Assembly (NCBI GenBank): GCA_036172245.1
Contig: JAYWIR010000164.1
Span: 1-51,458 of the forward strand
Source of the DNA: Raillietiella orientalis
Taxonomy: Eukaryota
DNA length: 51,458 nt
Direction: 5' to 3'
Below, piece by piece: positions 3,625-48,993 of the stretch. A model generated the notes under the pieces. It was not told the DNA's origin. It did no database searches and saw only the letters and a program-made list of their open reading frames with translations. Position 1 is the stretch's first letter. Each line of letters starts with the position of its first letter. A program made the position numbers and the translations under genes.

Positions 3625-6600
3625 ACTGATTAACCGTTGTCGTGCGCGCAAGACAATGAACCTCGAAGCCAGGTCACCGACTCGGCGGAAGAGGAGCAAT
3701 CTCTCGACTGCCAAGAAAGTGAATCCGCTAACTCCTTTAAAAGGCGAGGCGAACGCAACTCCCTCAGTGTCGGTAGAGAAAACTCCTGAGGTTTCCGAGA
3801 CGAAAGTCGAGAAAGCATACAAAAATCGTGACGGAGAATGAAAGGTTGTCTCGAGGAGGAAAGGAAAATCTCCCAAGAAGGCTTCGCAACCACCATTCGC
3901 GAACTTTTTGAAGGCAAAGAACAGCTGTGTAAACAAGAAAACACGCGCGGAGGGTTTTTTGGCTTAGGAAAAAGCCAGCGCCGTCAACGCTTGCAATTTC
4001 GCCTCTATGACCGCCGAGAAGACGATTCCGGTGCGATCGGACGGATGCAAGCGCACGTCGATCGTGCGAGCATCAGACTCCGCAAAGGAGTCCGATAGCG
4101 CCTCTGAACGACGCGTTACTCGCGCGGGAGCGAGCGCCCGCAGGGCTGAAGCCCTTAGGCGTGACACACTCGCCGAGGAATGGGGAATGCTCACATCGAA
4201 ACCCACAGGTTCTGCACCCGGGGAGGAGCACTCGAATACGCTCAGAACGGTGAAGGCCGGTGACGACCGCGCCCTCCAGCCCGTCGTGCTGCTTAGTGCC
4301 CGCTCGCCGGGTGAGGCGAGCACCACAGCCTCGCTTTCCAAGCCGTGATGAGGGCAATCGCGTCTAGTCGTCGTGTTGCCGTGGCGTGTTGGAATATCAA
4401 CGGTCTCCAACACGACGAGAAGAGGCGACTAGTAGCTAACGCTGTGCGTGCCTTCGACTTGACGCTTCTGCAGGAGATTCACAGGATCTCCGAAGAGCAG
4501 GCTGCCGAAATCGAACAGCGCGCAAGCGGAACGCTACTTTATAAATGCGGCGTTGCCCGTACGTGCGGCGTCGCTTTCCTCGTACGAGGAACTTTGGCGG
4601 GAGCGTTGCGCGGCGTTCGCTTCGACACGCAAGGCCGAGTGGGACAGCTTGTACTCAAGTGGTCCAACTCGATCGGCCTTCTCGTAAGGAACGTGTACGC
4701 GCCGAGTGGTGCTAAACAATAAGCCGAAAGGATTGAGTTCTTCAGTACCGTTCAGAGCCAAAGGCTCTCTTGTTCTCACCCTGCTGTGGCGCATCTCATT
4801 ACGGGGGACTTTAATGTCCACCTGCTGACCGAGAATAGCGCACACAAAAAGGAAAAGTTGCTAGTGGAAGAGCTGTACGCGTTCGTGCACGCGTGCAACT
4901 TGTTCGCTAACGACTTTGTTATGGCGACATCACCGGATCATGTACTCCTCGATGAACACTTGCTCTCTCGAGTGGATCGGAGAGGTCCCATGCCGTCCGT
5001 GCTTTCAGACCACAACAGGCTCGAGTTCGAGTTGCTCTTGCCAAACAAGGGGCCTCCAAACTGTGTTTGGAGGATGCCGGCAGACTGGCTAAGCCACCCG
5101 GAGGCGGCTGAGCATCTTCGCCAGTACCTCTCCGGCTTTGCCATAAGTGAGCTCGCTGACTGGGACGATCTGTAAAGATCGGTCCGCGAGTTTTGCTGCC
5201 GGTTCCCCTCGCACCAGCTTCCGCGAGGCTTCGAGGATGGTGTAGCCAACAGCAGATATTTTCTGCAGGTCTGCTTTTATTCCAGGCTCACGGACGTTGG
5301 TCGATTATCCGAGTACAAGGCCAAGGCCGAGCGCCAGGTCTGGCAGTCTAGGGCGACAGTTCTGCTCGACGACCAGGACCGGGAATGCTCGGCTCCAGCC
5401 GACGTGCGACGGATAGTCAGGCGCTATTACTCTTCTCTGTATGCAGAGGCACTGACGGAACGCAGCCTCTCCCGGCTGCTTCTGCCGATAGATGCACCTG
5501 TTGTAGACGAGGAGGAACGCGCGCGTCTTGATGAGCCCTTCACGGCAGAGGAAATTTCCTCGGCCATCTCGGGGCTCAAGAGACGAGAAGCGCCAGGCGA
5601 AGATGGGCTCCCCGCGGAATTCTTTCAGTGTTTTGCGGCGGAGCTCATCCCCCTGGTGCTCCAACTCTCGTCGCTGATGCGAGACGCGGACGATGTCCCC
5701 GCCCCGTTGCGCTCAGTGCAGGTGCGTCTCCTGCCGAAAGGCGGAGATTTGCGCCTACTAAACACTTGGAGTCCGATCACATTTGTTTATTCGGACGTCA
5801 CGTTGTTCTCGAAACTTTGGGTGGCGCGGTAGGGGAATGTCGCGGAGTCTTTGTTAAGTGCACAGCAGACCTACTCTGTTCCTGGGCGGTTTATGGACGC
5901 TAACCTCTTATTCATGGGCACATGGCTGCAATCGCAGCATCGCGTGGCGATAGATCTTCGTGCGGAAGCAGCGCCTTCGATCTCTCACCGAAGAAGGCGC
6001 TGATCGCAAAGGGAAACCCCGGGAGTCTTGGCAATTGCATTCGATTTGCACAAAGCTTTCGATTGCGTGAACCAAAGAATTCTTTTTGAGCTTTTGGAAC
6101 GTCTGTGCCTCCCGGCATGAATGTTAGCATACTTGCGCTCCTGCTGTCGCCACGGGATTACATCCATTGTTTTCAGTGACTGTTACGTGTACGGCGTGCC
6201 AGTTAGGCGAGGAATTAGGCAGCACGATAGCTTAAGCCCGCTGCTGTTTTGCATCTATTTTGAAAGGGTGCTGGAGGCTTACAGGCTGACGCTAGCCAGT
6301 CTGCAGAGCTGCTGTCCAGATAAGCCTGCCGTGCCAGCCTATGCCGACGACCTCCTTCTCCTGTTGCCTATTTCCTCCCCGGCGACATCGCTTGAAGACT
6401 TCTTTGAGTTGATTTGTCGCGCTGCGGGCGTGAGCGTTAACAGGAGTAGGTGTATGGTTGTTCCGGTGGGTGCGACGTGGGAGGGGCAGTCCGACTGGAT
6501 CGACCTGGGGATCCTCAGGGGCAGGTACCTCAGGTACCTTGACGTGCCGTTGGGCGACATCTGCATCTTAGAAGCGTGGTCGGACTGCCTTCGGAAGGCA

Positions 6601-13369: not shown

Positions 13370-16300
13370 TATCGACGTCTAGAAAAGTCCTCGAAAAGTG
13401 CCATCTTCGCAGGCGTTCTGCCTAACCCCAAATTTTGTCCAGCAGTGTTGCTGTCCAGATATTCCACTAGGGAAAACAGCATTGCATTGAAGGTAGTTTT
13501 CCTTGCCCTCGCTAGTTTTGGGGGATTCTCCAGGACCTCCCGGAGCGTCAGGCGGTCAATACGGGCGAAGAATTGTCTCTGTTCTTCTTGGGTGCGTTCC
13601 TGGTTGCTGCTTGCCCACGTCTGAGCCGTTTCCTGCAGCCATGCAGGTCCGTTAACGGGGCGACAGCAGAGCTATCCTGCGTTCTTCCTCATCAGATCAG
13701 CCACACTCCGCAACTGCAACCCGCAGTGACCAACTTGGCGGCGAAGACGGAGCGCAAGGAAGGATGACATTAACACCTTGCCTGTAGCCTTTTCAACGAG
13801 GAGACGTGCGGGCTCGCACTAGCTGCTATTCCAATATTTCGCCACTAGGGCCAGGAACCGAAACTGGAGCTAAAGCTCCAGCCGCTCTAGCGTCAGGAGG
13901 CCGATACCGCCGTCCCGACGCGGAGCACCCAAGTCCTCAAGCCGGATTCGCGCCCTCCCATTACCCCACAGGGCAATCCTTAGGAGGTCCTTTGTGCGCT
14001 TTTTAGTCTCTGTGCTGAAGGGGCAAACAAAAAGTAGTAAACGCAGAAGGGGAGCCGAAAACACGTTTTACACGGCGGCCGGTTCCGGAAGGAAAATCCT
14101 GCGGCCTTGGAACGGGCCGATCGCCGTCTCTACCTTCTGAAGAGAGCTGGACCACTCATCCGAAGGAAAATAATCCCCTATCGGTACACCGAGGTACTTG
14201 AAGTACCGTACCGTGGGGATCCCCAAACGGACCCAGTCCGGCTGCCCTACCCACGCCGCACCGATTGGCATGACGGACGACTTCGCACTGTGCACCTCAA
14301 TCCCGGTTCCCCGACTGAGCAGGTGGAAGAACTCCTCGAACGCCGATGTCGGGATGGACATAGGGAGCAGTAGCAGTAGGTCGTCTGCATATGCTGACAC
14401 CGCGGGCGTACTGGGATAGTCGCGTGGCAGGTGCGCTAGAGTTGTCCTGTACGCTCTCAGTACCAACACGAAGTAGCTACTGAAGAGCAAGGGACTCAGT
14501 CTGTCTCCCTGCCGTATGCCGCGTCGCACCGGTACGCCTTGCACGGTGTGTCCACTGAAAAAGATCCGGATAACCGCGTCGCGCCAGCAGGATCGCAGGT
14601 AGGTCAGCAAAGAGACCGGGAAACCCAAGCGTTCCAAGAGCTCCAGCAGGAGCTTCTGGTCGACACAGTCGAATGCTTTATGCAAATCGACGGCGACTGC
14701 GAGGGCTCCCTTCCACCCCCAACCATCCCGTTTTTTAAAATCGTAGATTCCGGAAGTCCGGTTGCCCATTCTGACCCTTTTCGGTTGGAGCGCGAAAAAG
14801 GTGCAGGCGAGGAACAGGTTGGCATTCATGCTCCGCCAGGGAACAGCATATGTCTGCTTCGGGCTGATGTAGCTTTCCGCTAATCGCCCCAGGCGTTCAG
14901 ACCTTAATTTCGCCAGCAACTTGGAGTCCGCGTTCATCACGGTAATCGGCCGTCATTGCTCATGCTTCGAAGTTCTCCTCCCTTAGGGAGGAGACGCACC
15001 TTTGCCGAACGTAACGAGGCTGGGACGTCGCCCGTTTCGCGGATCAGCAAGATGAGTTTTTTTATCAAGAGAGTGAGCTCTGCCGCAAAACCTTCAAAAA
15101 ATTCCGCTGGCAGGCCGTCCTTTCTTGAAGCCTTCCGCTTCTTAAGCTTTCTGATGGACGAGATGATCTCGCCCATCGTGAAAGGCTCGACGAGGCTCCT
15201 TTGATCTTAGTCCCCGATCGCCGGAGCGCCTTCCGGAAGAAGAAGTCGCGAGATGTCCCTTTCCGGTGGAGCGCGAGCCTAAAGGGAGAAGTAGAATTTT
15301 TTTAATAAGCCTTTCACCTGGGCGGAGGAGGAGTGCTCCGAGCCCTGGTCGTCCAGTAAGCTGCCCGACCCGGATTGCCACGCCTGCCACTTTGCTCTTG
15401 CAAGGTATTCGGCTAACCTGCATACATCTGGTGTTCGCGCGTAACATCGAGATTGTAAATACCATCTCTCGTTACGCACGCTTTCACAAAAGCCGGCAGG
15501 CAGGCGGTTCATAGGGAACTCGTTGCAAAACTCTTGGACCGAGCGCTTGAAACGGTCCCATTCCTGAAGCGTCTGCAAGCTGAAACCTCGTATGAATCCG
15601 CGGAGATGCTTCACGGCTTCCGGAAGTTTCAGCCAGTTTCGCGGTTAGCGCCACGCATATGACGGGGGACCCCTATCGCGTGGCCGTACCTCGAGTACGA
15701 TCCGGTCATGGTCCGAAAGTTCCTACGGTAACCTGCAGCGCCTGCCCACGCGTGAACATAGGTGCTGGTCAAGATACACGTGATCTATGCTGTCAGCGAT
15801 TTCCGGATCGCCGGCAAAAAAGTTGCGCGTATGTATCTCTGCTCACAGCTCGTTCACGCGGTCCCGAAGTGTGTGGGACGCATCCGACAGCAGGAGAAGG
15901 TTAAAGTCACCTTCGATTAGGTGCGCTTTGCGCACTCCCGCTTTGTCCAGATATTCGCGCCTCAGAGTAAGGAAGAAATCTCTCCTTGCCTTCTCCGCAA
16001 GCGCGTCGCTGCCGCATAAGCGCACAGGTTGGTAATGACCAGATCGATGGAGTCGGACCACCTGATGGTCAACTGGCGACGTGACCAGCACTATCGAACC
16101 TAACGCCTTTTGCCGCTACCTCGACCGCTGGACGAACCAGGAACGCGACACCGCAAGATTTAACGGTGCCGCAACGCCACATCAGCCGTCCACCCGAGAT
16201 ACGCTCGATCTCCGTTGCTTCGTCTGCGAAGATCACGTGGATCTCTTGCAGCAGCACCAGGTGAAACGATGTTAGGGTGGAGGCCACGTCTCGTCTCTTG

Positions 16301-18490: not shown

Positions 18491-21400
18491 GTCCCGCCGA
18501 GGAGGGCAAATCTCGAGCGGATCTCTGGACAGCATATGTGGTATAAATGTGGGAAATCTAGAAGTTGTGATGTTGCCTACCTGCTTCGGCCAGCCGTCGA
18601 GGCCGCGGCGCAAGGTGTGCGGTTCGACGATCACGGTCGTGTCGGCCAGCTGACTCTCAGGTGGACCGAATCTATCGATCCGATGGTCACGAACGTGTAC
18701 GCCACAAGCGGCGCGGACCTGACAAAAAGGAGGACGAGAAAAGAAACTTCACTTGCACTCCGGCGCGACTGGCTCACCCAAGCAGGCGTGCGAAATGCCC
18801 ATCTGGTTGCAGGGGATTTCAACGTTCGCCTGAAACCAGATGGGCAAAACCACGAGCGTGACCTGGTCAACGAGGTGCGCATGGCGGTGCACACCTGTAA
18901 TTTGCTGGCCGGTGCACCGGGGATGGAGGACAGTATCGACCAAGTGTTCCTTGATCAGCACCTGTGCCCTCGCGTGGGCAGGCGCGGCAAGTTACTGTGC
19001 GAGCTGTCCGACCAACGCCCGCTAATTCTCGAGATCCATCCGTGCCACAGGGGCAACCACTCTTCAGCGTGGCGTCTGCCAGGGGACTGGATGAAGCTTC
19101 TGGACGCGGCGGGACATCTCTGCACGTTCATACAGAGCACGAGACTGCGGACACTCCAGGATTGGGACCGCTTCAAGCGGTCGGTCAAGAAGTTCTAGGA
19201 CCAGTTCCATCTGAACCGACTACCTACGGGTTTCGGGACCGCGCTTCGCAACGAACGAGCTTATCTGCCGGCCCTTCGTTACGCCTGGAGCCTTGACATT
19301 CGCAGGCTGGCGCAATACAAAGCGGGAGGGAGAGGCAAGCCTCGCATTCCTGATCGGCCAGCATGCTGGCCGATCGGGGGTAAGAGCACTTGCACCCGCC
19401 CAAATCCGCAGCCTGCTACGGAGATTCCACTTCTCCCTGTACGCCAGGGAGTCTTCGGAGAGGAATCTCTCACGACTCCTGCTTCTGGAAGGTTCTCCTG
19501 CGATCGGAGAAAGGGGGAGAGAAAGACCCTCGACGAGCCTTTCACGATGAACGACATGCTCTCGGCCATCGGAAACCTCAAGAAGCTCAAGGCTACAGGG
19601 GTGCACGGCCTCCCTGCGGAGTTTTATTAAACTTTCGCGGCTGAGCTTACCTGCTTAATACAACTTCTCACCTTGCTGATACGCGAGAGAGGTTGTTCCC
19701 GCCTCGTTTCGTTCGTCCGAGGTGCGGCTCCTACGTAAGGGAGGAGACCTGAGCAGCATGAACTACTTGTGGCTCATCACACTAGTGATTGAGGACGCCA
19801 AGTTGCTAGCAAAGGTTTTGGCAGAGCGTCTAGTACGGTTTGGCAACATCTTCATGAGCCCGGAACAGACATATGCTGTTCCTGGGCGAATTATGGAGGG
19901 GAACCTGTTCCACTCTTCCACCTGGCTTGAGCTACAACATGAAAGGAGCTTGGTGCGCAGCAGGAATTCCGGTGCGTGTGCCGGCAAGGGGTTGGATGGT
20001 CGTGTGGGGGAGGGAGCCCTTGTTGTCGCAGTCGACTTGCGGAAAGCATTAGATTGTGTCGACCAGAATCTCCTCTGGAGCTTCTGAAACGCCTGACTTT
20101 CCCGGCCTTATTAGTAACCGATCTGAGCTCGAGCTGGCGTCACGTGCTCATCAGCGGTTTTTTCAGCGGGCATACCGTTCACGGCGTGCCAATGCGGAGA
20201 GGGATACGGCAGGGAGACATCCTGAGCCCCTTGCTCTTCAGAACCTACTTTGAGATGGTACTGTGAGCGTAGAGGGAATCTCTGGCTGACCTGATGCACG
20301 ACTATGCCGGTACGCCGGCCGTTTTAGCGTAGGCAAAATACCTTCTTCTGCTGCTTCCTATGTCCACCCCGGCTTCGGCAGTCGATGAGTTCCTCGACCT
20401 GCTGCATCGGAGAACCGGACTTACGTTGAACAGGGAGAAGTCGTATGTGATGCCAGTTGCTGCGGCTTGGGCAGGGTAGTAGGACTGGGTTCTTCCGGGA
20501 TCCTTACGGTGAGGTTCTTCCAGTACCTTCGTCTGCCGTTGATAAATTCCCCTCCTGCTAAATCCTGGTCCGGCTGCCTCCAGAATGTAAAGACGGCGAT
20601 CGGCCCGTTTTGAGAGGGCAGGTGTCTCCTGCCTGAACGAGGCGCGGTTTGGAACACGATCGTGGCTCCTCTTTCCCGCTCCTTGCTTGTTGTTTGCTCT
20701 TCCACAGAAAGAATTAAAGGACGGACAAAGGAACTTCTCCGTATCGCCCTTTGGGGCATCGGAAAAGCCAGACTCCGCTTAAAGGACTCTTGCGCTTCGC
20801 GTCGGGACGGTGGTCTCGGCCTCCTGACATTGGAGCTGCTGGAGCTTGAGCTCCAGTTCCTAATGTTGGCACTTGATCCAGAGTTGTGGTGCACCTGTAG
20901 GTGCGTCCCTGTACGTCTGCTACTCCAGCAGGCCGCCTGGAAGACGAGAGTCATGTCGTTTCTTGCAATCCGTCGCCGCGTCAACCGATGCGGTATCCAA
21001 GTGGCTGCGCTCAAACGAGAAAACCACGGATGGATCACCTGTCGTTCTACGAAAGGTAGTGCCTGGTTGTAAGAAAACCGTTCGCACGTGGGGACAGTGC
21101 GGCATGCATCGCTCCCAACAGGAACGAAGGTTCCTGTTTGGCGGTTACAGAAGTTTCACGCTCCGTGAGATTCTGGAGGATCCAAAGAAGATAGCGTGGG
21201 CAGGAAGAACTTCCCTTGATGCTGCGCTGCCCTGCTTGATGGAAGATCAGGACAGCGATTTTGCAACGAAGTGGGAGGTTAGGGTAACAATCTCTAAGAA
21301 GGAGAAGATGATAGAAGAGTGTAAGACTGGTCAGCTGACTGATGCTGCCACCCCGAATACGCCCTCCTATGGACTTGTACGCTCGGTTGCGCTGCTCGAC

Positions 21401-22138
21401 GTTCCCATTAAACGTCTGAAGTGGCCTATAATACTTATGAACACCTCCACCTTCCCCTTAAAATGGCAGGAGTGAGCTCTCTTGTTGCAGCACTTGGGAC
21501 TCCTCTGCAACTCCTGCAGACACCACATGACCTGGGGAGCGATGGACTCCAATTGTGTCAGGTGTGGGGAACGGGATTCTCTCCCTCACCTGCTAGTGGA
21601 TTGTGTTGCACTTCGACTATTTTGATTCCGCTTTAACGCGGCAATCGGAATATCTTGCGGCAACCCCAGGGACGTTCTGAAAGCCCACTTCGTGGCCGAT
21701 ACCCTTCAGCCAGCGGCCTCGTTAGCAGCCCTGTGCTGCTTACGCGTGATCCTCGCCGCCTGGAGCAAGGCAACGGGAGGACCACACAAACAGGTTGCCA
21801 TCCAACCAGCCTCTCAGTTCCTGAGGCGGGCGTCGCGATGGCCCCACCTGGGTCCATGCATGCAGCAACCGCTTGACGGCATTCTGCAGAGGATGCAAGT
21901 GCACCACCAGGTAAAGTGATCCCTTCCCGTACTCTCAAACTTTTTCTTTTCTTTTTTTGTTTTGTTCTTTGTCTTTCCCTCTCCCTCCTGCTGCCGTGGT
22001 GGCCCGTATTGGTCTGCAAACCGGTTACTCGGCAGTATCTGTGTTTATTCGTGCATGGATTGAGCAATGGTCCCGCAACTACACGTCTTTGTAAAAGTTA
22101 ATTGTTTTAATCAACGCCTTGCAAAAATCCGGGTAAAA
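18491..22138 (+). mobile_element. Family B (lineage Y) element, 3' part from mid-EN to 3' terminus
   Basis: EN ORF 18536-19198 (GDFN, SDQ); RT DLRKALD and RQGD; finger CVRCGERDSLPHLLVDC near 21555; terminal CCGGGTAAAA 22129-22138. Confidence 0.92.
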
Positions 22139-25100
22139 ATCGAATGCTTTATGCAAATTTACTGCTACTGGCAAGGCTGCCGGCCTTTTAGCCGTCCGTG
22201 CGCACCAGCGCTCGCAGTCGTCAGAAGGTGTTGCCGCTGTTCGGCTGTCCGCCGCAAAGCGCTCTTGCAGTTGCCACCAGGTTCGCGCGAAAAGAAGGTT
22301 CGCATCCATGGATCTGACCGGTACAGCGTAAGACTGCTCCAGGATTACCACGGAATCCGCGATTTTTCCTAAGCGCGTGACCCACAGCTTCGAAAAGTAC
22401 TTAAGGTCCGTATTGACTAACGTAATCGGACGCCAGTTGTTGAGTTGGCGCATATCTCCTCCTTTCGGAAGGAAACGCACCCTTGCTGAGCGGAAGGAAG
22501 AAGGGACATCGCCCGTCACCCTCATCAGCGTCGAGAGTCTAAGCACCAGTGGAGCGAGTTCAGCCGCGAAGCTCTGATAGAACAACGCGGGCAGCCCGTC
22601 CTCACCTGGCATCTTCCGTTTCTTGAGTCCTGCGATGGCGGAAGGAACTTCCTCCAACGAGAAGGGCTTGTCGAGACGGGCGCGTTCCTCCTCGCGGATG
22701 CCGTGTGCATTCCGCGGCACAAGCAGTTCCTAGAGGATTCCTTCCGTGGGGGATTTGGCGTAGAGCAAGGAGAAGTGACGCCTTAGTGTTCGCCGTTCTT
22801 CGGCAATAGGCGTGCATTCCCGTCCTTGGTCGTCGAGCAGAATAGCCGCTCCAGACTGTTAGATCTGATTCTCGGCTTTCGCCTTGTACTCTGCGAGGTG
22901 CCGGACTTCTGCAAGTCTAGAAAAGGTGCGCGCCTGCAGAAATTCTTTGCTATTGGCCACGCCTTCTCCAAAGCCGCTCGGGAGGAGGTGCAGGGGGAAC
23001 TGGTCGCAAAACTCGCGAACCGATCTTTGAAGATGTTCTTAGTGTGCGAAGTGCCGGAAGGCAAAGCCGCAAAAGAACTGGCAAAGATGCTCCGCCGCCT
23101 CCGGATAACTGAGCCAATCCGCGGGCATCCCTTGCTCGGCCGAAGTAGCTCGAACTCCAGCGTATCATGGTCCGAAAACGTGGACGGCACCCTGCCTCTC
23201 CTTACCACTCGTGTGAGTAGGTGTTCATCGAGGTAGACGTGATCCACGCACCTTTCAATTCCAGGCTCGTCGGCTATCATGTTACGCGCGAGCACTGATG
23301 CGTATGCCTCTTGCATCCGTGCAGGTTCCGCCAGCAAGCTCGTCTGGATGGAAAGCAGTTGGACGTTGAAGTCCTCTGCGACGAGATATGCAACTCTGAC
23401 TCCGTACATCCTGAGCCATTGGCTCTCCATCACGTCGAAGATGTTAATTTCGGTGCGCCGATGGAAGCCGCTCGGCGTGAAGACGTTCTTTAGGACATGG
23501 TGGAATGAATCTGACCATTTGAGTACAAGTTGGTCTTTTTCCCCCTCCTGGTCGTACGCTGCGCACTGCTCCCTCCATCCGACTATGAACGAGAGACCCG
23601 ACTCCGCACGATTGTGCAGCACCTTCTCGCCAGTACAGGGTGCTACCCGCGCGCAGTTAAATTTTGGAAACGTCCGCTTCGGACATGTAATGCAACTCTT
23701 GAAGGATCTCCAAGTCGAAGTGTCGCAGAGTGTCTGACACGCGACGCCTCTTTGCGTCCCAGCGCAGCCCGTTCACGTTCTAACAGGCTACGCTGAACCG
23801 ACCAAGAGAAGCGACTTCCTGCATCGAGGTTGGGAAGATGAGCACAGGTTTCTCGCTTTGTCAAGCGAGTGGTCTCGAGACAGAACGGAAGAACATGGAG
23901 ACTGGACATCTCCATTCGAAGCCGCCCTGCTTGTTGCCGGTAGCTCAGAGGTGAGGCCCATTCTCTTCTGTTTGCTCCCCGGCAACAGTTCCTATTCGGC
24001 AATTTCGCGCTTGCGGGTCTTCTGAAGGTGAATGCGCGGTTTCGAGCGGGATTCGCGCTGTGTGCTTATTCTGTCGGACTCTGCATTGGAATCCGACAGT
24101 CAGGCGCTTGCCAGGCGCTGCTTCTGTTTTTTGGAATCGGGGAAATCATTTGCTGCCTGTTTCCTAGCGCTTTCTGCTACTGCGGCTGGGACTTTCGTCC
24201 TTTTAGCCGCAGCAGCAGCTTCCTGCTCCATCCGCGAGAGGACGACTGCACAAGAGGAAAGAAGCGCAATCTTTATTTGGGATGGTTTTTTGGGTTTCTT
24301 CCGCACACTAACCTTCACACAGAGCTGCGAAGACATTGACGGTTTCTTTTAGATAACCTTTCTCACCAGCATTCAGCCGTCTTTCTTCGCGTCGCAGTTA
24401 TATTTGCTCTCCTGAGATGGCGCTGCGTCCGCGGATGTAAGAGGCGCTGCCTTGGCTGCCTCGTGAACTGCTGCCTCCGCGCAGGCGTAAGCAACTCCCT
24501 TAGCGATCGCGAGAGGCGCTGCCTCTTGCAGATCGGAGGATTCGCGCGTTTCCTTTGCGACCGCTTGAAGCACAGCTGTAGCGATTGTGCTCGCCCTAGC
24601 AGTTCCTTTCTTGGCCGCAGCAGGCGCTGCGTCTGCGCGCGAGGATTGCGGGTTATTAGGCTGTTTCGTCGCGTCACTCGGCGCCTGGGGCATCTTGGCC
24701 GCGGTAGGTTTAGCAGGCACGGATTTCTTTTTGGAGCGGGCGCGATTTTCCCCTATCGAGCGAGCGACCGCATTCCTACCACTTGCCGTGGCCTTCATAG
24801 GAGGCTTCGCGGTCGTGATGCCGACAGCAGGAGGCTTCTTGCCTTTCGGCGCACTCTGTCGTGCATTGCAAAATTCTCTGCGAGGTCTCGGTGAAATGTC
24901 GCATTTCACACGAGCTTCCGTCCGCTGGGAGGCCTGAGGCTTCGCCGAGACGCTTTTTTTCATGTTTTTCTCACCTTTCTTGTGGAGGGAAGAAAGGGTT
25001 TTCTGCGCACGTGCGCCCGCGGTTTTTGCAACGCTCTCCGAAGTTTTCAGGATTTTTTCCCTCGATTCGCAGCGTTTATTTCACGATGCGATACGCGCTT

Positions 25101-25984
25101 CGTTCTTTCGCTTTTCGATTTCCAAAAGGAGCTCCAGGCACGTCTCTTTTGTGTGCCCGGGCTCGTTGCAGTAACGTCACGCGGCCGTGGGACACTTCGT
25201 TAGGCGGTGACCCTCCTGTTCGCATTCTGAGCAGAGAAGCGTTTGCCTCGCAAACCACAGGTGGACTTTGATTCCATCCAACTGTAGTCGCGTGGGCATT
25301 TCCCGGCGAACCGCCATCGTCTGTCGCACCTGCGCGAACCCGCTGTGGTGTTGTTCGAAACGCTCAGCAGAATTTGGCAACCTCCAAAGCGCGTGAACGA
25401 AAGCAAATTTTTTAAGGGCCTCCACGTCCTGGCGGTTCGAAAGACCCTTGCTCACTCCACTCAGCCGGACAACGAACAACTGATCCGTAGTGGTGAGGAG
25501 TATTTCCTGCCCTCGAATGAGCAGCGGCGTGGACAGCAAACGCTGCCGAAGGAGAGCGTCCTTAGTGGACACCTCCCGGAAGCCGCACCCACTCATGGGC
25601 ATGTTAAACTCCAGCTGATCTCTCTGAACTTAAATCCGTCGGAGTTCCTGGCCAAACTCGCGCCCAATCCGCTCAGGCATAAGAACACTTACCTCATATC
25701 TGTGTGCAGGCGTGTAGCCATTTGCTACCTACGTCTGCGGCTCAGGGTTGTCGGGAGAAGGTCCCATTGTGGCCGCGAGGGCAGCGACCTGGGCGAACTT
25801 CCTCGCCGTCGGCGAGGACAGTGGCTCCTTGCAAGCAGCAGAAATTGCCATCTCAGGAGCAGGAACGGTTCCCTTCTTGCGGCTGATATACTTCTTTGCT
25901 CCCATTGCAGCACAGAAGCACAGCAGAACAGAAACACAAAAGATTCAGCCTACCGCGGAGCGACGCAAAGCACGTCCGCACGCG
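22139..25984 (-). mobile_element. Family B (lineage X-like) element, 5' part: 5'UTR, ORF1, EN, linker, RT up to LHKAFD
   Basis: ORF1 CSECEQEGHRLTKC (25177-25602); EN EDFN and SDH (22783-23622); RT PGEDG, WRPITL and NLHKAFD, cut at 22139. Confidence 0.92.
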
Positions 25985-25987
25985 ACC

Positions 25988-28434
25988 GGCGCGGATGCGG
26001 GAGAAGGGAGATGTTTTCGCATCTTTCCGCTTAGCAAAGGTGCGGCTCCTGCCGAAAGCCGGAGATTTGCGCCACCTCAGCAACCAGTATTCGATCATCT
26101 TAATGAATTCAAACGTCAAGTTGTCCTACAAACTTTGGGTCGCGCGGCTGGGGAGAATCGCAGCGTCCTTGGTAAGTCCGGTGCCGAAGTATGCTGTTCC
26201 TGGGCGGTCCATGGACGCGAATCTCTTCTTCGCGCGAACATGGTTCGAGTTGGAGCAGCGCGTTGAGCAGCAGAGTCAGGCAACCGAAATCGCCGCTGCC
26301 AAAGGTAAGCGGCGATGTTCAAGGCACGATGGAACCCCAAGGTCCTTAGCGGTCAACGTGGATCTCAGCAAATCGTTCGACAGCGTAAACCAGGACCTCC
26401 TTCTTGAGCTTCTGGGACGCCTAGGCATCTCGACCCACCTTATCGACTACTAATGCTCCTGCCGGCGCCACGCGTTCTGCTGTATCTCTTTCAGCGGGCG
26501 TCACGTGTACGGCGTCCCAATACGGCGGGGTATCATGCAGGGAGACAGCCTAAGTTCCCTGCTCTTTAGCATTTTCATTGAGTTGGTGCTGAGGTCGTAC
26601 AGGCTGACGTTGGCCAATCTGCCGAGCTCCTGCACGGGAATACCGGCCGTGGTCGACTATGCTGACGACCTTCTCCTGAAGCTGCCCATGTCTACCTTGT
26701 CGTCCAGGCTCGAGGACTTCTTCGAGCTCATTCGTCGTGGAGCAGGCTTGACCGTCAACAGGACGAAATCAACCTTTGTACCGGTTGGCTCTACGTGGGA
26801 GGGGCAGTCCGACTGGATCCGGCTGTGAATCTTCACGGACAGGTGCTTTAAGTACCTTGGCGTTCCGTTGGGCGCATTCTGTTTAGCATAAGCGTGGTAG
26901 GACTGCCTTTACAAGGCTGAGACTGCTCTCGGCCCGTTCCAAGGAGTCAGGTTCTTCCTGTCGGAACAAGCCTTCGTGTGGATCAATCTCGTTGCCCCCT
27001 TCTCCGTCCCCTCTTCTTTGTTTGTCTCCCTCCGTACTCGGCAGAGCGGCGGTCGCAACGCTTGTTGCGGAACGCCTTGTGGGGAACGCCGAGGTCTAGT
27101 ATCCGCCTTAAGGACTTGGCTGCTCCTCGTCGGGATGCAGGATTGGGCATCATGACGTTGGAGGGGATCAGACTGCTAGTGGAGTTCCGCATGCGGGCAC
27201 TTTGTGCGGAGCTCTGTACCACTCCCTGGTGTGCTGCAGCGCGGCTGCTGCTGCGGAGTTAAAAGATTGGTGACGCACTTCTTTAGCAGCACCTACGTAC
27301 GGAGCGCGTCAATGAGAGGATTTGGCATCACTGTGAGGCAGCTCGCCTAGCTTATAGGAACGTATTCATGGAAGTCCTGCCTGCCGACGAACATTAACTC
27401 TTATAGTTAGGAAGCTTTATCCTCCTGGGCAGCGCAACAGGATGTATGCCGTTTGGAACTCCGTTGCGTGAACCTTTCCCCATACTTTCCAGTGGGGGAG
27501 GTGCTGGAAGACCAGGACATGTGGACACGCCTAGCCGCTACGCCACTCGCCGAAGCACTGTCTGCACTGATGTTGCGAGACGACAGTGACCTGCCGGCGA
27601 GCAAGGAGGTCGCTTGCTACATCGCAGGCGAAACCCAACTTCTGGAAGGCTGGCGGACTTCCAAAGTGGCAGACGCTGCCACACTTCGCCTTCGTGCCAA
27701 GGGACTTCTCCGGTGGAACGAGCACCTCGGGGTGCCCACCGATAAACTTGCGGTCCCATCTGCGTGTTTGGACGCGACTCTCTTCCCCCTTTCGTTGGAA
27801 ACAGGACGCTTTTCTGCTTTTGCATTAGAGTTTGTACTGCAACGAGCGCGCGCAACTGGTTTCCGTTAAAGTTGCGTCCCCGAACTCTGCCAAGTATGGA
27901 GCGGTGGAATCGCTTCCGCATTTGCTGTTTGAATGCAATGCCTTCCAGGAGCTCTGGCGGTGGCCGTCTTCAGCTATCTCACCCTGGACACATCGCACTG
28001 GATTGGATGCGTTGCTTCTACACGCGTGGCGGTCTTTCTCTTGAAGCGGTCGTCGCACCCATCTGTTGCGTCCGCGCCGTTGTCAGGGCCTGCCATGCAT
28101 TGCACATGCGAGCAGTCCCATCATCGGTCCCCGACACAGCAGCCTGCAACCTGCAAATGTCTGCCGGGTGGCCAGAACTGGAGGCAGAGGTGAGGACGGA
28201 GATCGGCCGCATTTACCGCTGGTTCTCAGAATAGAAACGGTTGAACTGCATACCCCTTTACCCGGCCTCCCTCTCAATTTATTTATTCATTGTCCCTTCC
28301 CTCTCGTGTTCCGAACTCTCAGTATGCCCTGCCTGCGTTCCGGTAAATCTATACCCCATCTTCTGTTCCCCTTTCCTGGGAACACAGTTCCCAGATGAGA
28401 TTATAAATAAACGTCCCGGCGAAACCGGGTAATA
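25988..28434 (+). mobile_element. Family B element, 3' part from RT start to 3' terminus
   Basis: VRLLPK, DLSKSFD, MQGD, YADD (26505 ORF), ESLPHLLFEC; AATAAA 28406-28411 and perfect CCCGG-CGAAA-CCGGG 28415-28429. Confidence 0.92.
28406..28434 (+). promoter_or_regulatory. Conserved 3'-terminal signal of family B: AATAAA-CG-Y-CCCGG-N5/6-CCGGG-TRANA (best copy)
   Basis: Related copies at 8238-8266, 22109-22138, 31324-31352, 33745-33770 (+) and 45325-45354 (-). Confidence 0.8.
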
Positions 28435-29257
28435 AACGACAACGCTGCATTTTTTAATCTGTTTGCTTGCCTGCTCTTTTTTCTGGTGGTACGCGAGCTT
28501 TTTCTGCAATCTTATCTCCTTCTTACTCTTTTTGGCTGTTTTCACCTGTCATCCAGGGTCTTGGTCGTTTCCTTTGACCTTTTCGCCGGTTTCTCGTATA
28601 CGGCCTGAGCCTTGTGCGCTGCTGGCGTAGCCTTCGCGGCAGCTTTCGCCTCCAGCCTTTTCTGAAGCAACCGGTCGCGTTTTTTAAGTTTCCTTTTCGA
28701 AACCACACCCACTGCTACTTTTGGGCACACCTCTCGCGTGTTATCCATTTTCCCACATACTTGGCACTGCACGCTGGGGCACCTCTTTTCGAGGTGAACG
28801 GAATTATTGCAGAAGCCACAGTATTTGGTCTTCCCCACATACCAGAGGTCGATTCACTCTCTCCACCACCAGTTTGGATGGAGAGTGGAGCCCTTCCGAA
28901 CGTTTAGGCGTGCAGCTATGGGGTCGTGTTGCAATCTCGTGTAGTCCTCAGAAGGACTAACTTACCACCACTGCGCATGGACTGTTTTAAATTGCTCTAG
29001 CGCGGCGCGAGCCTGTTTTTCACGCAATTGGGCGGTAACGCCTCACAGACAAACTACCATGCTGCGATCCACCGAAATGAGGAGGAGCCGCATCCAGGCT
29101 CTCCATGGCCTCTGGTGGCGGCGCTGTTGCTGCCCACTGGGCATTCCTGGTGGTCGCGTCAGGCATCGCTTTCTGATCGATCACCAAACCACACGACGCT
29201 AGCACTAGGGGAGACTTCCTTGCAAAAGAAGCACCGAGAAAACATGTCCGCCCTACA
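28435..29257 (-). mobile_element. Family B (lineage Y) element, 5' part: 5'UTR and internally deleted ORF1 with two knuckles
   Basis: CGFCNNSVHLEKRC and CQVCGKMDNTREVC; KKLAYHQKKEQ...CSVVV cut at 28435; 5' motif near 29240-29257. Confidence 0.85.
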
Positions 29258-29258
29258 G

Positions 29259-31352
29259 CGCACAAGGCGTTCGACTGCATTATCCAGGAATTCTTTCTTG
29301 CGCTACTGTGACACCTAGGTCTCCCAGCGCATCTCGTCGACTACTTGCGATCCTGCTGGCACCACAAGTTATGCTGTATCTCTTTCGGCATTCGTCACGT
29401 GTACGGCGTTTCCATACCGCGGCACATCAGGCAGAAACAGTTCCAGCCCAATGATCTTCAACATCTTTGAGTTGCTGCTGAGGGTGTACGGTATTACGCT
29501 TACCAACTTGCCGAACTCCTGCCGTGGAACTCCGGCTGTGGCCGGCTATGCTTACGACCTAGTCCTTTTGTTCTCCATGTTTACTCTGACGTGCAGGCTC
29601 GAAGACTTCATCGAGCTCATCCGCGGAGGAACGGTCCTGAGCGCCAACTGCACGAAATACACCGTTAAACCGGGTGGCTCTACGTGAGTGGGGCAGTCCG
29701 ACTGGATTTTCCTGGGGATCCCCACGGCCTGGTGCTTTGAAAAGCTTTGTGTTTCCTTGGGTGCCTTCTATCCAGCAGAAGCGTGGTAGAACTGTCTATA
29801 CATGGACGAGACTACTTTGGGCCCGTACCAAGACGGAAGGATACTCCTATCGCAACGAGCCATCGTGTGGAACATTTTCGTTACCGCCCTCCTTCGTCCG
29901 TTATTTTTTGTATGTCCCTCTCTCTACCCGGCTAAGCGTGGGGCATAACGCTGTTTGCGGACCACCTTGTGGTGACCAGCAAGGTACAGGTTCCGCCACA
30001 AGAACTTGGTGGATTCTCGACGGGATGCCGGCTTGGGCATTCTGCTTCTGGAGTGCATCGGATTGTTAGTGCAGATCAGCATTCTGACACTTTCTTCCTA
30101 GCTTTGGACGACTTCCCGGTGTGCTTCAGCGCGTCTGCTGCTGCGGCGTTGCAAGTGTGGTGACGCACTTCTTTCGCAGCACCTACGTACGGAGCACGTC
30201 ATGAGAGGCTTCGGCTTTACTGTAAGGCAGCTCGCCTCGCTTCTGGGAACGCATTCATGGAACTCTTGCCTGCCGACGAACATTAACTCCTACAGTCAGG
30301 AAGCCATATCGTCCTGGGTAGCGCAACAGGATGTGTCCCGTTTGGAACTCCGTTGCGTCAACCTTTCCTTATTTTGTCCAGTGGGTAAGTGTTGAAAGTG
30401 TAAGCCAGGACAAGAGGATGCTCCCATCCGCTATGCCCCTAGCCGGAGCGCTGTCTGTCTTAATGGTGCGTGACGACTGTGACCTACCAACAAGGTGGGA
30501 GTCCGTTCGCGCTATCGCAGAGGTAATGCGGCTTCTGGGCGGAGGGAGGGCCTGCGAGCTTCGAGACGCTGCCACGCAACTTATTTGTGCCAAAGGACTT
30601 CTCCGGTAGAGCGAGGTCCTCGAGGTGCCCGCCGAAGAATTTTTGGTCCCTTCTCCGTGCATAGGGGCGATTGTGTTCCCTCTTCCGTGGAAGCAGGACG
30701 CTTTTCTGTTGGTGCATTGGGGTTTGTTTTGCAACCAGCGCGCGTACATGGTTTGCGGTAGAGTCGCGTCCCCGAACTGTGTAGACAACGGAGCGCTGGA
30801 ATCGCTACCGCATCTGCTATTTGAGTGTGGTGCACTCCAGGAGCTGTGGCGGTCGCTGGCCTTAACTCTCCTGCACCAAGGGGACACCGCAAGAGACCTG
30901 ATGCGCTGCTTCTTCACGCCAGGCGGCCGGTTTTTACGTTCCGTCATCGCAACGCTCTGTTGCACCCGCGCCATCGACAGGACCCACGGAGAGCTGAAGA
31001 AGCTCCATATTCTTCGTCAACCTACCGGAATAGCCAACACGATCATGTCGTCGGCTTCCGATAGGGCCCCTCTTTCAGTGGACGTTAGGAGCGAGATCGC
31101 CGGCATCCTTAGCAGGTTCTGAAAGAAAGGAACTGCCAAATCAAAGACCTCTGTCCTTAAGCTCTTAAATCTTTATTTATGTTTTTGATATGTATTTTTG
31201 TGGTCCCTTCCCTCCCATTCCAGACTTGCGGTATACCGACATGTTTATTATAGCGCGCCCGGGTTCCCCGCATCGTTTCTCCTGTATCTTTTGTTCGGGA
31301 ACTCTGTTCCTGGATAGTTTATACATAAACGACTAGGCGCATCCGGGTGACA
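29259..31352 (+). mobile_element. Family B element, 3' part from RT HKAFD to 3' terminus
   Basis: HKAFDC starts at 29261; degenerate YAYD near 29548; ESLPHLLFEC (30625 ORF); terminal CCGGGTGACA 31343-31352. Confidence 0.9.
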
Positions 31353-31955
31353 AACACCTGATTCCCCGCGATAGCTTCTATCTCCTTGTCGTCCACTGCG
31401 GTGATCGTGTGGATCTCCTGCAGCAGGGTCAGTTCGATGTCACGCATAATGTCGCCCTGAACTGTTCTGTTGCCGTCGTCGCGCAGCAAGTTGACATTCC
31501 ATTAGGCGACGAGGATCCAACGGCGACAGGAGAGTCCAGGTGTTGCTGCTGGGACATCATCGCTGCGGCGACTGCCACCAATTGGGGACGAACGCTGGGA
31601 GGAGGAAGGAGGTGCTTGGAGCACCTGGTTTCCCTCCCTCATCAGTGCAGGCTCGTCAGCCAGTTGCCCGAAGGTGGGGTCGCGCCTACCTGTGCGCCCC
31701 CATCCATGTCCGCGGGCTGTTCAGTATCGGCGTCTGCAGGGGGGATTCCGTCCCCCTGCTAACCCTCATTAATCGGGGTGGCCTGCTAGGCGGCTGCCGA
31801 GCGTGGAAGATCCCTCTCCGGGATTCCCACAATGGTGACGGATTCAGCTTTCCCCTTCTCGCTCGTCCACGGAAGGAGTGTTCTAGATTTTCGGGACTTG
31901 AGTCCCGCACGCTCGGTGGTGTCTCCGAGGAAGAGTGGCTGAAGGTAGGCAATGT
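31353..31955 (-). mobile_element. Family B fragment: ORF1 C-terminus and EN start
   Basis: WNVN near 31490-31501; LTLLQEIHTITAVDDKEIEAIAGNQV cut at 31353; TGATG at 31555-31559. Confidence 0.8.
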
Positions 31956-42269: not shown

Positions 42270-43620
42270 CCGTGACAGCTCTCCTTGAGTCTTCCGCGAA
42301 GAAAGTTGCGAATGCTCCAGGAAAATGGGAAGGCGATTGGGTGGTTGCTGAGCGCAGAAAACACAACTGTGCCTAAAATGGCACGCAAACTTCATCCGTG
42401 AGCACTTGCAAGACTGGGATCAGTCGTGCAGCAAAAGAAACAGCGAATCGGGTGTTCCTTTTTTAGCAAAACCCAGTCAAGTCAACGCGTTGCAGTCTAA
42501 CTTTTTGACAGTCGGAAATACAATTTTGGTGGAAGCAGGCGTAGACGAACGCACGACGCTTGCCCGAGGATTAAACGCCGTGAAGTTCGATAATGGCTCT
42601 GAACGGCGCGTTACGCATGCCGAAGAGCCAGCCCGCAGGTCTGAAGTCTACAGTCGTGATACGCCGCTGACAGGCGAGCGCTCAGCCCGGAATCCACAGG
42701 TTCGGTGCCAGAAGAGGAGTTCTCGATTGCGTGCAGCACGGTGAAGGCTGGTAGCGACTGCGCAGTCCATCCTGCCGTGATGCTCACTACCCGCTCGCTG
42801 AGTGAAACGTGCACCAAGGCCTCGCTTTCTTAGAGGTTTTGAAGGCAATCGCGTCTTCTCGTAGTGTTTCCGCGGCGTGCATAAAAGTGACAGCACTCCA
42901 GCAGGACGACAAGAGACGACAAGTAGCCACGGCTGTCGATTACCCACTCCTGCAGAAGATTCACAACGTCCCTGATTTATAGAATGGCGAAACCGTACAG
43001 CTCACATGCGGGGATCTACCAAGGCGGCGCCACGTCGCACCTACATTCGGCGTCGCTTTCTTCGTGGAACGAACTTTGAAAGTAGCGTTGTAAAAGCTCG
43101 CTAGGAAACGGAAGACAGCTTGTACTCGACAGGTACGACACCATCGAACTTTTATATGCGAAGGTGTTCGCGTTGAAGGGTTTTGTTCGCTGTGTCGATA
43201 AAATTGAGATCTTTGCTTGCGTTCTGAATTGGTTGCTTACTGGTGCAAACCCTGCGGTTGCGCATCTCACTTCTAGGGTTTTTAACGCCGAGCTGCCTTG
43301 CGAGAATAGTTCCTACAAAAGGGATACGGCGCTGGATGACCAGCAATGCGCGTCCTAGAATGCCTGCAACTTGCTTCTTATCGACCCTGATGTGACGGCA
43401 TTTTGGTAATATGTGTTCCTTGATGAACACCTACTATTTCGTGTGGGTCGGAGAGGTTCCCGATCGTCCGTTCTTTTCTACCATAAGAGACTCGATTCCG
43501 AGAATCTTCCACCTGTCAAGGCTCTCCAAAACGTGTTTGGAGGATGCCGGCTCAATGGCTTAGCCACCCGGAGGCGGCGAACAGTTTTCACCGTAAACTC
43601 CGCTGCTTCCTCATGAGAGA
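42270..43620 (+). mobile_element. Heavily decayed family B (lineage X) fragment: ORF1 C-terminus and EN
   Basis: ERRVTHAEEPARRSEV...RDT matches the 4007 ORF; VFLDEHLLFRVGRRG matches the EN end. Confidence 0.8.
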
Positions 43621-43859
43621 GCGCGCTTGTCAACTAAATGCGCAGAGGCGTTTATTCTTTCGAATTAAACATGGAGAATCTGAGGTTTAACCAGTAATCC
43701 GAAGAAACAGCGCAGGGTTTTTCAAGTCGTTGGATTCACGACCAGTTTGTAACAACACGACAGCAGAAATGGTGGAGAAAAAAAATTAAAATCTAGTTAA
43801 AATTTAAACAAACAGAAAACTATTATTTAGCAGGCACGGGATGGGATCACGGTAAGATG

Positions 43860-44640
43860 AGGCGCCGTAACATTCTTCTTAGGACTCCGGCAACCTCTTC
43901 TTTTATTTGGGTTTTCAGGTATGGACATTTCATCGCCGTCTCCAAGAATTCGACGGCACACAAGAAGGCACATTTATTACATGGGCCACGTTGCACTCCT
44001 CCAAACAGCAAATATCAGGTGAAAGCAGTAAAGGGCTGCTAACAGAGCCGCAGTCCGTAGAGCGTCGCAAGTGAAGAAGGTTTTAGTTCTGTCTGCGCGC
44101 ATACTGCTTGGGTTTCCAAGGGTCACGGCAACGCTGTTCCGAAGTAACCGCACACCAACACAATCCTCCTCGGACGCAAGGAAGAACTGGAGAAAGAGAA
44201 CGGCTGGATGGAATTCAGCCTCACCGACTCCAACGCATGGCTGGAGGAGACAACGGGTACGTCGGCGAAGTTGAACGTAGACAGAAGCGAGAAATCAAAC
44301 CGCCTGCGATTCAACCCATCGCCCGCATCATACTGCGGACATTTCACAGTGTACCGCCATGAGCACGTGGGCGCAGACTACCCCTTTAGTTACGGCGCTG
44401 CCCTTTCTACGGAGATTCTTCACCAGCGGCCGGACGCTGAATTGGCTAGTATCCTGCCGGATCTCAGGCAGAGAGAAGAAATTAAGCGGCAGGACCATGG
44501 GAGAACTGGTCGACGCTACGAACCCGAGTGCCTTCCCTCGTGGACTTGTAAGATGGGCCAAGTTGCTTGAAATCCCGACGGCAGACCAGAAGTGGCATCT
44601 AGTGATGAGCGGATCCAAGGTTTTTCCCCTGAAGTAGCAA
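43860..44640 (+). mobile_element. Divergent, decayed ORF2 C-terminal fragment
   Basis: AWLEETTGT and TMGELVDATNPSAFPRGLVRWAKLLEIP resemble AWLQETVRT and TGQLTDAATP..GL in other copies; left boundary uncertain. Confidence 0.5.
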
Positions 44641-44729
44641 CAGTTGGCAATGCTGCTATTGCACTTGGATCTACACTGCAAAGCTTTCCGCTTTCACTGG
44701 AAGAGGGTAGCTGTGAATCCTCAATGTAC

Positions 44730-48970: not shown

Positions 48971-48974
48971 TCGT

Positions 48975-48993
48975 ACAGTGCAGACGTGTTTCC
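48975..48993 (+). promoter_or_regulatory. Conserved 5'-terminal motif of family B (GNGCRGACNWGYTTT-like), candidate internal promoter/initiator
   Basis: GTGCAGACGTGTTTCC here; minus-strand GAGCGGACCAGTTTT (~18073-18087), GTGCGGACGTGCTTT (~25967-25981), GGGCGGACATGTTTT (~29239-29253). Confidence 0.6.

Follow-up and report, generated by a model that had tools for sequence, protein, structure and literature searches.

Antisense insertion of LINE copies at the L-H-K-A-F-D reverse transcriptase codons of other LINEs in a nested cluster from Raillietiella orientalis

Two LINE copies joined to the same codons of two hosts

The DNA analyzed here, a stretch of 51,458 nucleotides (nt) from Raillietiella orientalis (contig JAYWIR010000164.1 of GenBank assembly GCA_036172245.1, positions 1 to 51,458 of the forward strand), carries a dense nest of related long interspersed nuclear elements (LINEs). 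We refer to the whole stretch as the window, and all the evidence on site specificity is drawn from it. The window was mapped by tblastn with three references: the second open reading frame (ORF2) of element C (4315–7950), the ORF2 of element ins2, and a 433-aa ORF1 (49083–50381). Two copies of one LINE lineage, designated the I lineage, each abut with their 3′ tail the antisense strand of another LINE, exactly at the codons L-H-K-A-F-D of its reverse transcriptase (RT). These codons are a specific antisense insertion site that was used independently at least twice, a conclusion that is well supported within the window.

The first I-lineage copy, G (18497..22138, + strand), is decayed and spans ORF2 from the N-terminal part of the apurinic/apyrimidinic endonuclease (APE) domain to the 3′ end. 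It aligns by tblastn with residues 9–1040 of the ins2 ORF2 at 18500–21895, and its left boundary lies within 18497–18516. The short, A-rich tail, CCGGGTAAAA (22129..22138, +), has no long poly(A) and is followed by the last bases of host 1 before G, namely the L-H-K-A-F-D codons TTGCATAAAGCATTCGAT (22139..22156, −), which may have provided the primer end for target-primed reverse transcription. Host 1 is the 5′ part of an H-like LINE (22139..25994, −), with ORF2 residues 6–583 at 23842–22139, ORF1 at 25815–25138, and a 5′ terminus at 25994 that begins CCGCG. The second copy, ins2 (45325..49001, −), contains an RT ORF at 47749–46637 (371 aa) and the APE at 48997–48413, the Pfam domains RVT_1 (6.7e-20) and Exo_endo_phos (7.4e-05) being detected on consecutive − strand ORFs. 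Its tail is CCGGGTGAAA (45334–45325), and its 5′ side is broken in the APE N-terminus, with the first ~60 residues missing; there it adjoins the + strand LINE P, whose 5′ end is at 49002. The ins2 tail is immediately preceded by the L-H-K-A-F-D codons of host 2, TTGCACAAAGCATTCGAT (45307..45324, +). Host 2 (42812..45324, +; reference residues 3–281 and 389–583) represents the 5′ portion of a LINE ORF2 that has diverged strongly, and it is itself interrupted at 43626–44744 by a twin-primed insertion, R/Q.

Read on the element strand, junction 1 is ...AAATCCGGGTAAAA followed by ATCGAATGCTTTATGCAA at 22138/22139 (+), and junction 2 is ...AAATCCGGGTGAAA followed by ATCGAATGCTTTGTGCAA at 45325/45324 (−). 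In other words, the + strand at 22129–22160 consists of CCGGGTAAAA and then ATCGAATGCTTTATGCAAATTT, and the − strand at 45334–45307 of CCGGGTGAAA and then ATCGAATGCTTTGTGCAA. A previous interpretation of this DNA from its letters alone (the sequence-only reading) had described 3′ ends at 22138 (+) and 45325 (−) that read CCGGGTRAAA before antisense KAFD codons; this was confirmed, CCGGGTRAAA being the terminal bases of both I-lineage copies at the KAFD junctions. The 18 bases after the tail are the same at 17 of 18 positions between the two junctions and have perfect copies in two more elements; the reverse complement of those shared past the junction, TTGCAYAAAGCATTCGAT, gives the codons L-H-K-A-F-D. 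At junction 1, the frame of host 1, which holds the N-terminal half of the RT (...WRPITLVNTD...AALPVAVNLHKAFD), is in register with the 18 bases, as is that of host 2 at junction 2 (...GAFTVKSALHKAFD), whose RT motifs lie farther upstream in the neighboring frame. Because the RT half that flanks each junction reads in register through the 18 bases, these bases are derived from the hosts and were not carried by the insert. Their arrival by 3′ transduction was ruled out for the same reason, as the host reading frames run on in register. The RT of host 1 and that of host 2 are split by the I-lineage insertion right after K-A-F-D, as the sequence-only reading had held, and the I-lineage 3′ ends at KAFD are two of the two in the window.

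Independence of the two insertions

The two hosts had been said to differ too strongly for the junctions to be one duplicated junction, and the alignments bear this out. In a self-BLASTN of the window, 18548–22156 (+) aligned with 48925–45307 (−) at 80.9% over 3637 columns, ending 18 bases past the junction, and no host–host alignment was found beyond those 18 bases. Paired global alignments anchored on the junction gave identities of 76.8, 77.4, 76.8, 79.3, and 79.7% on the insert side over 100, 200, 300, 600, and 1000 nt, and of 47.0, 49.0, 50.7, 53.8, and 49.8% on the host side over the same lengths. In the control, in which one 300-nt flank was shuffled 20 times, the mean was 41.9% and the maximum 51.2%. 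Over the 385 nt that lead up to and include the D codon, identity was 85.6% between G and ins2 and 51.4% between host 1 and host 2. Over their last ~345 nt, the two I-lineage copies were 78–79% identical.

A single ancestral insertion followed by segmental duplication, in which the two junctions would record one event, would predict equal divergence of hosts and inserts. The hosts, at 47–54% and close to the shuffled level, are instead far more diverged than the inserts, at 77–80%, and their alignment ends with the 18 bases (51.4% over the 385 nt), so that duplication is rejected in favor of two separate events. The matching junction text and the 18 host bases alike at both places would suit a single event, and duplicated junctions may exist in this nest, where two other junctions (C into D and U into N, described below) diverge similarly on both sides (62–77% versus 65%); for the KAFD pair, however, we consider such an origin highly improbable. 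Simple arithmetic on a host of ~5.5 kb gives a prior chance of ~1 in 11,000 that two independent insertions fall on the same nucleotide and the same strand. Both I-lineage copies show what characterizes a sequence-specific LINE, namely independent copies joined at one nucleotide and in one orientation.

A proposed mechanism of insertion

The I lineage, represented by G and ins2, probably integrates site-specifically and antisense into the RT gene of sibling LINEs. In the proposed mechanism, a nick would be made in the sense strand of the host immediately behind the GAY codon of K-A-F-D, inside TTGCAYAAAGCWTTCGAY^TG. As the tail is A-rich, the nick can be located only to within 1–2 nt; with a cDNA starting TTTT or TTTC, the nick may be placed after TTCGA, TTCGAT, or TTCGATT. 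From the 3′-OH at the nick, the I RNA would then be reverse transcribed, starting at its tail, and priming from a nick in the sense strand would always leave the new copy antisense to its host, with its 3′ end against ...KAFD. The second strand may be cut ~15 nt upstream. The host RT would be divided into an N-terminal half and the rest, and hence inactivated. As to the source of the specificity, it could lie in the endonuclease of the element or in base pairing between the target and 3′ flank RNA produced by read-through.

RNA guidance would use the same site, read-through transcripts from copies already located at KAFD, with the antisense flank AUCGAAUGCUUU..., pairing with the KAFD sense strand of other LINEs, and RNA-guided placement has been proposed for the rDNA-specific R1/R2 elements. 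The nearly invariant 18 bases after the tail (17/18 between the junctions) would offer a usable duplex, and a daughter copy would in this way inherit the site and orientation of its parent. At the APE sites of the nest, however, the host flanks share ~3 bases at the nick, so pairing is not a general rule among these elements, and we hold guidance of this kind to be rather unlikely.

The target and its occupancy

For site-specific integration of the I lineage into sibling RT genes, the predicted stretch of the host ORF2 around LHKAFD would be ATCGAATGCTTT, and a target duplex would carry TTGCAYAAAGCWTTCGAYTGCGTG. The perfect 18-mer TTGCAYAAAGCWTTCGAY occurs four times in the window, two of these copies (in host 1 and host 2) being occupied by the I lineage. 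The empty copies lie in the near-intact element C (C/Href; ORF2 4315–7950) at 6046..6063 (+), and in element E, which is I-like and 73% identical to ins2, at 14668..14685 (−). Intact copies of the target continue TGCGTG or TGTGTC. The DNA of the 18-mer is conserved across diverged LINE families, in agreement with the conservation of the motif put forward in the sequence-only reading, and the idea that a host could not easily mutate the KAFD site is plausible, although the inserting lineage itself has an Arg codon there in place of His. The degenerate pattern AARGCNTTYGA was found eight times in the window versus 0.78 expected, a count that was reached in 0 of 100 shuffles.

The I lineage's own KAFD codons differ from the target. 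In ins2 they read TTGCGAAAAGCATTCGAT (47417..47434, −), with Arg (CGA) replacing the His (CAY) of the hosts, and Arg for His is also present in G at 20037–20054 (CGG) and in P0005 (DLRKAFD), the sole relative outside the window. This codon may shield the I-lineage copies from their own insertion. Element A (31–1758, −), a much more distant LINE whose protein is only 24–25% identical to the others, carries an uninterrupted I-D-M-E-K-A-F-D motif and is oriented with its 5′ side toward that of C.

A third break at the same codons had been placed at about 29259. The RT fragment T (29261..31354, +) does start with CAC AAG GCG TTC GAC TGC, that is, H-K-A-F-D-C, and spans reference ORF2 residues 579–1198, up to its own tail GGGTGACAAA at 31354; in the DNA adjacent to T, no homology to other elements was visible upstream of the His codon. 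The 823 bases on its left belong to K (28437..29259, −), an ORF1 fragment of an antisense LINE (approximately residues 75–350 of the ORF1 reference), which is similar to three other ORF1s of the window and whose truncated 5′ end adjoins T at HKAFD. T is a candidate for the downstream portion of a third host broken at KAFD, and the boundary between K and T is compatible with the 5′ junction of an antisense KAFD insertion in which the host resumes 15 nt upstream of the nick. The start of the fragment at H-K-A-F-D-C stands, whereas the lineage of the insert, which is represented there by the ORF1 fragment K alone, cannot be assigned from that fragment, and the 3′ junction of K lies outside the window.

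The sequence-only reading had combined these junctions into a specific target with a target-site duplication (TSD) of about 15 bp, spanning CAYAARGCNTTYGAY. The specificity holds in so far as the same nucleotide and orientation were used twice. The duplication, however, is pieced together from different events, since the 15-nt figure relies on junctions 1 and 2 for the nick and on the start of T, 15 nt upstream of it, for the other limit.

Other break sites in the nest

The LINE pieces strictly alternate in orientation along the window and fall into three chains. In the first, A (−) and C (+) meet in a head-to-head 5′ junction, and the tail of C abuts an internal site of D (−). The second starts with a head-to-head junction between E (−) and F (+), which is followed by G (+); the tail of G abuts host 1 (−), host 1 meets E3 (+) head to head, the tail of E3 abuts K (−), K meets T (+) head to head, the tail of T abuts M (−), M meets U (+) head to head, and the tail of U abuts N (−). 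In the third, the tail of ins2 (−) abuts host 2 (+), and the other end of ins2 meets P (+) head to head.

Each of the seven tails found (C, G, E3, T, U, ins2, and R) lies directly against another LINE in its antisense orientation, and KAFD proved to be one among several recurrent break sites, the others having been missed by the sequence-only reading. Apart from G in host 1 (22138/22139) and ins2 in host 2 (45325/45324), both at KAFD, the tail of C enters D at 8268/8269, a point in the APE domain that lies eleven codons past the I-H of L-L-Q-E-I-H; that of U enters N at the identical APE position (33772/33773); and that of T enters M (31354/31355) 27 nt further downstream. The tail of E3 enters K at 28436/28437 in ORF1, after C-S-V-V-V, and that of R enters host 2 at 43626/43625, just before D-W-D-D-L. 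The tails share CCGGGT followed by 4–6 A-rich bases (e.g., 45325–45345, 28416–28436, and 33752–33772). A 3′ stem-loop was considered and dismissed as a significant structure, as the 5-bp CCCGG/CCGGG stem was predicted in three of six tails with z scores of only −0.5 to −1.6 versus shuffles.

C and U are 77–79% identical in ORF2, and intact paralogues at the APE site read GAAAT^CGAAC or GGAGAT^CGAG. The pair was rejected as a second clean independent recurrence because hosts (65%) and inserts (62–77%) diverge alike, and the insertions of C into D and of U into N could be one duplicated event. The D-W-D-D-L site also recurs, at the R tail (43625/43626) and at the start of F, which begins exactly there at 18097 beside E, a copy whose full-length 5′ end is at 18096. 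G starts 0–17 nt upstream of its own equivalent of the APE site (nick equivalent at 18513/18514), whereas in ins2 the break is 42 nt upstream of the corresponding position (48960/48959), where P adjoins it with its 5′ end (49002). KAFD, APE, and D-W-D-D-L each end upstream halves and start downstream halves, as cuts in duplex DNA at preferred sites would produce.

At the ORF1 site, the uninterrupted paralogue in D reads AAGGCGTTCGAC (antisense, 8989–9000). There, 8989–9010 consists of GGGAAGGCGTTCGAC followed by GACGAC, a KAFD-like string that is antisense of ORF1 and falls at the position of the break of E3 into K (28436/28437). The orientation of the E3 insert relative to this motif is opposite to that at the true KAFD sites.

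TCGA lies beside the nick at three of the sites: TTCGAT^TG (KAFD), GAAAT^CGAAC or GGAGAT^CGAG (APE), and GTCGT^CGAAC (ORF1). As there is no longer common motif, different families may differ in specificity. An alternative is a loose nick preference for a short motif (GAT^Y or TCGA), added to a general bias toward LINE chromatin, in which case the coincidence at KAFD would be partly luck. With only 4–5 bases, a motif would be present at tens of places on each strand of an element, whereas both I-lineage copies use one and the same site in one orientation, and since such a motif occurs on both strands it leaves the antisense orientation of all seven tails unexplained. We consider this alternative unlikely, even though TCGA at three nicks, the lack of a long shared motif, the two empty 18-mers of four, and a sample of two copies count in its favor.

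A complete insertion and the origin of the joined pieces

R/Q, which is antisense in host 2 with both host halves kept, is the sole complete insertion in the window. Its direct part, R (43626–44237, −), runs from the tail to a position matching ins2 45907, and its inverted part, Q (44226–44727, +), matches ins2 46408–45905. Around it, host 2 passes from reference residue ~286 at 43625 to residue 389 at 44745, with ~310 nt lost, so R/Q shows a target deletion at insertion, besides any duplications. In the twin priming of L1, the inverted segment ends where the direct segment begins, and R/Q is alike in this respect (inverted end at ins2 45905, direct start at ins2 45907). The KAFD junctions are unlike it, their head-to-head partners being from different families. 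With both host halves present, R/Q also shows that a tail against an antisense host arises by priming on host DNA.

It could be argued that the recurrent positions are features of RNA, and that the host pieces are internally primed cDNAs or copies of cut RNAs, brought together with other elements through twin priming or template jumps at a single, repeatedly used genomic site, with no need for reciprocal halves. The alternating orientation, the head-to-head 5′ junctions, and the CCGCG termini at 18096, 25994, and 49002 would fit such an origin, as would the absence from the middle nest of the downstream halves of the − strand hosts, and twin priming does occur (R/Q). Host 1 and E3, however, overlap by 128 codons at 62.9% identity and so do not come from one RNA, and the other head-to-head pairs are non-adjacent in element coordinates; host 1/E3 and the other pairs were accordingly ruled out as twin-primed halves of one RNA, given the 62.9% over the 128-codon overlap. 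The tails (GGGTRAAA) showed no visible complementarity to the RNA that immediately follows KAFD (UGCGUG), the use of KAFD, APE, and D-W-D-D-L as both ends and starts is explained directly by a duplex cut, and the R/Q tail adjoins the DNA of a host of which both halves are preserved. An origin from RNA features therefore appears quite unlikely, and insertion of the I lineage at a cut in host DNA is the reading retained below.

Families of the nest and the intervening DNA

The I lineage comprises G and ins2, and E is more distant (68–73%). Host 1, E3, and C are mutually ~62–64% identical, and host 2 is 51–56% identical to every other element. The assignment of these elements to LINEs follows from the seven tails with CCGGGT and an A-rich end, from the 5′-truncated copies, and from the one twin-primed insertion. 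The APE and RT pair (Exo_endo_phos and RVT_1) is also present in other elements of the window, with order and extent given by tblastn. ORF1 carries zf-CCHC, and the C-terminus of ORF2 has a CxxC...H...C motif, in which Pfam zf-RVT was undetected. The best named matches were L1-type RTs (plant, Chara, and arthropod) with PF13966 (zf-RVT), at 23–33% identity; Chara, at 29%, was the one named alga among them.

The ORF2 of C (4315–7950, +) is a single frame of 1212 codons with eight in-frame stops and no frameshift, which suggests decay by point mutation, possibly C-to-T, rather than by indels. The ORF1 of P (49083–50381, +; 433 aa) is intact and has a zinc knuckle, and the following ~1 kb (50400–51458), where the ORF2 of P would be expected, has no similarity to any LINE of the window. 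The CCGCG 5′ terminus is common to E (18096, −), host 1 (25994, −), and P (49002, +), and in each case the terminus abuts the broken end of the element in which the copy sits; E, host 1, and P look like full-length copies.

Non-LINE DNA breaks the nest at ~9.2–13.4 kb and at ~34.7–42.5 kb. The first of these segments (9207–13400) is 4.2 kb of lower-GC DNA without domain matches or repeats elsewhere in the window, and the low-GC, non-LINE center of the window contains an inverted repeat of ~535 bp at 82.8% identity (36736–37269 and 38560–39093). Pfam searches on 67 ORFs of the regions at 9.2–13.4 kb, 34.6–42.8 kb, and 2.0–4.3 kb (beside or within A and C) gave nothing credible, and Rfam gave no matches on the window.

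Weight of the evidence

In a search of 5.8 billion protein clusters, the RT of the insert had 17 matches, one of which (P0005, 72%) was a close relative. The ORF spanning host 1 and the junction gave one weak protein match, at 30%, and a longer protein query gave 41 matches, all at ≤33%. No chimeric proteins joining ...KAFD to the antisense tail were present among the protein database matches. A pattern built from the RT alignment gave 242 matches in metagenome contigs, 99 in viral contigs, and 128 in genome contigs, not one of which was confirmed. The tail hairpin was found at 12 loci of metagenome contigs, all lacking the A-rich tail and a LINE context and seemingly unrelated, and the exact junction 22-mer was absent from the viral and the genome contigs.

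Several points weigh against site-specific integration as proposed here. The data hold just two copies of the I lineage, and the protein and contig searches yielded none outside the window, so the claim of site specificity rests on the window alone. Two of the four perfect targets are unoccupied; the recurrent sites have no long motif in common and share just TCGA near three of them; and the C-into-D and U-into-N pair is not clearly independent (inserts 62–77%, hosts D and N 65%). An intact insertion with HKAFD on both sides, which the sequence-only reading had hoped for, is not present, no insertion in the window having KAFD at both junctions. The offset from nick to 5′ boundary is 15 nt at KAFD, 0–3 nt at D-W-D-D-L, and 0–17 and 42 nt at APE; with offsets that vary in this way, and with the deletion of host 2 at R/Q, a fixed 15-bp TSD is unsupported.

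The layout raises further difficulties of the same kind. The middle nest has host 1, K, M, and N as its − strand hosts; their downstream halves are absent from the window, and that of host 2 would fall beyond the window end. In a simple nest, the downstream halves of the − strand hosts are expected to the left of the innermost element, and what was found left of G is F and then the 5′ end of E. F joins G through a shared ATCTCG, which simple nesting leaves unexplained. The homology of E is lost at ~13400 (13360–13405), before the C-terminal Cys/His motif, and 4.2 kb of unrelated DNA follows. Our reading thus has to assume an extra step, in which one deletion or assembly join near 13400 removed all the missing halves.

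Comparison with known systems

Sequence-specific APE LINEs include R1 (28S rDNA), TRAS/SART (telomeric repeats), and the Tx1 group (snRNA and tRNA genes, and, for Tx1D, a transposon), and their specificity is ascribed to the APE endonuclease. In mechanism they come nearest to what is seen here. The KAFD insertions are like these in using one nucleotide and one orientation of a conserved, multicopy target. They differ in that the target is the RT coding sequence of another LINE and not a host gene family, and in that several families of the nest appear to use different sites. If the present reading is correct, it points to an APE-type endonuclease or a ribonucleoprotein with a target of ~18 bp, and each KAFD insertion would kill a competitor or relative LINE, a natural case of one retrotransposon disabling another.

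A broader scenario, possible though doubtful in our estimate, is an arms race among sibling LINEs in which each family cuts conserved stretches in the others and the I lineage is immune through the change of His to Arg. The I lineage would act at LHKAFD, C and U at the APE codon position, and others at ORF1 and D-W-D-D-L, and insertion would always be antisense because the sense strand of the host is nicked. The His-to-Arg codon, 10–12 nt from the nick, would spare the attacker, and the whole would amount to hyperparasitism with target-site immunity. Such an arms race would also drive a self-feeding growth of LINE-only chromosome domains such as the algal centromere clusters.

In pattern, the window resembles those clusters. 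In green algae, Zepp and Zepp-like LINEs of the L1 type insert into copies already in place, and each chromosome bears a single cluster of such nested copies (PMC3446292; PMC8226300); that the clusters accumulate because new copies target the existing ones is also described in bioRxiv 10.1101/2022.06.16.496473. No target sequence is given in the portions available to us of these three sources and of bioRxiv 10.1101/2025.03.28.645958, and a literature search, which did not cover the primary Zepp descriptions, returned no LINE that targets the RT codons of another LINE. The likeness lies in the dense nest of the window, in which seven of seven tails lie within other LINEs, amid non-LINE DNA. As far as they are described in the source, the Zepp-like arrays are tandem and consist mostly of 3′ ends (PMC8226300), unlike the alternating orientation, the antisense inserts, and the retained 5′ parts and termini of the hosts found here. 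The window differs further by its codon-level target, LHKAFD, the comparison with Zepp and Zepp-like elements being one of description and not of sequence. A LINE that takes the RT motif of other LINEs as its target would link the site-specific LINEs with the self-targeting clusters of Zepp and would provide a molecular rule for the growth of LINE-only clusters. The best reading of the window is accordingly that of site-specific, antisense LINE-into-LINE insertion, resembling the self-targeting clusters of the Zepp type and having a defined, codon-level target.

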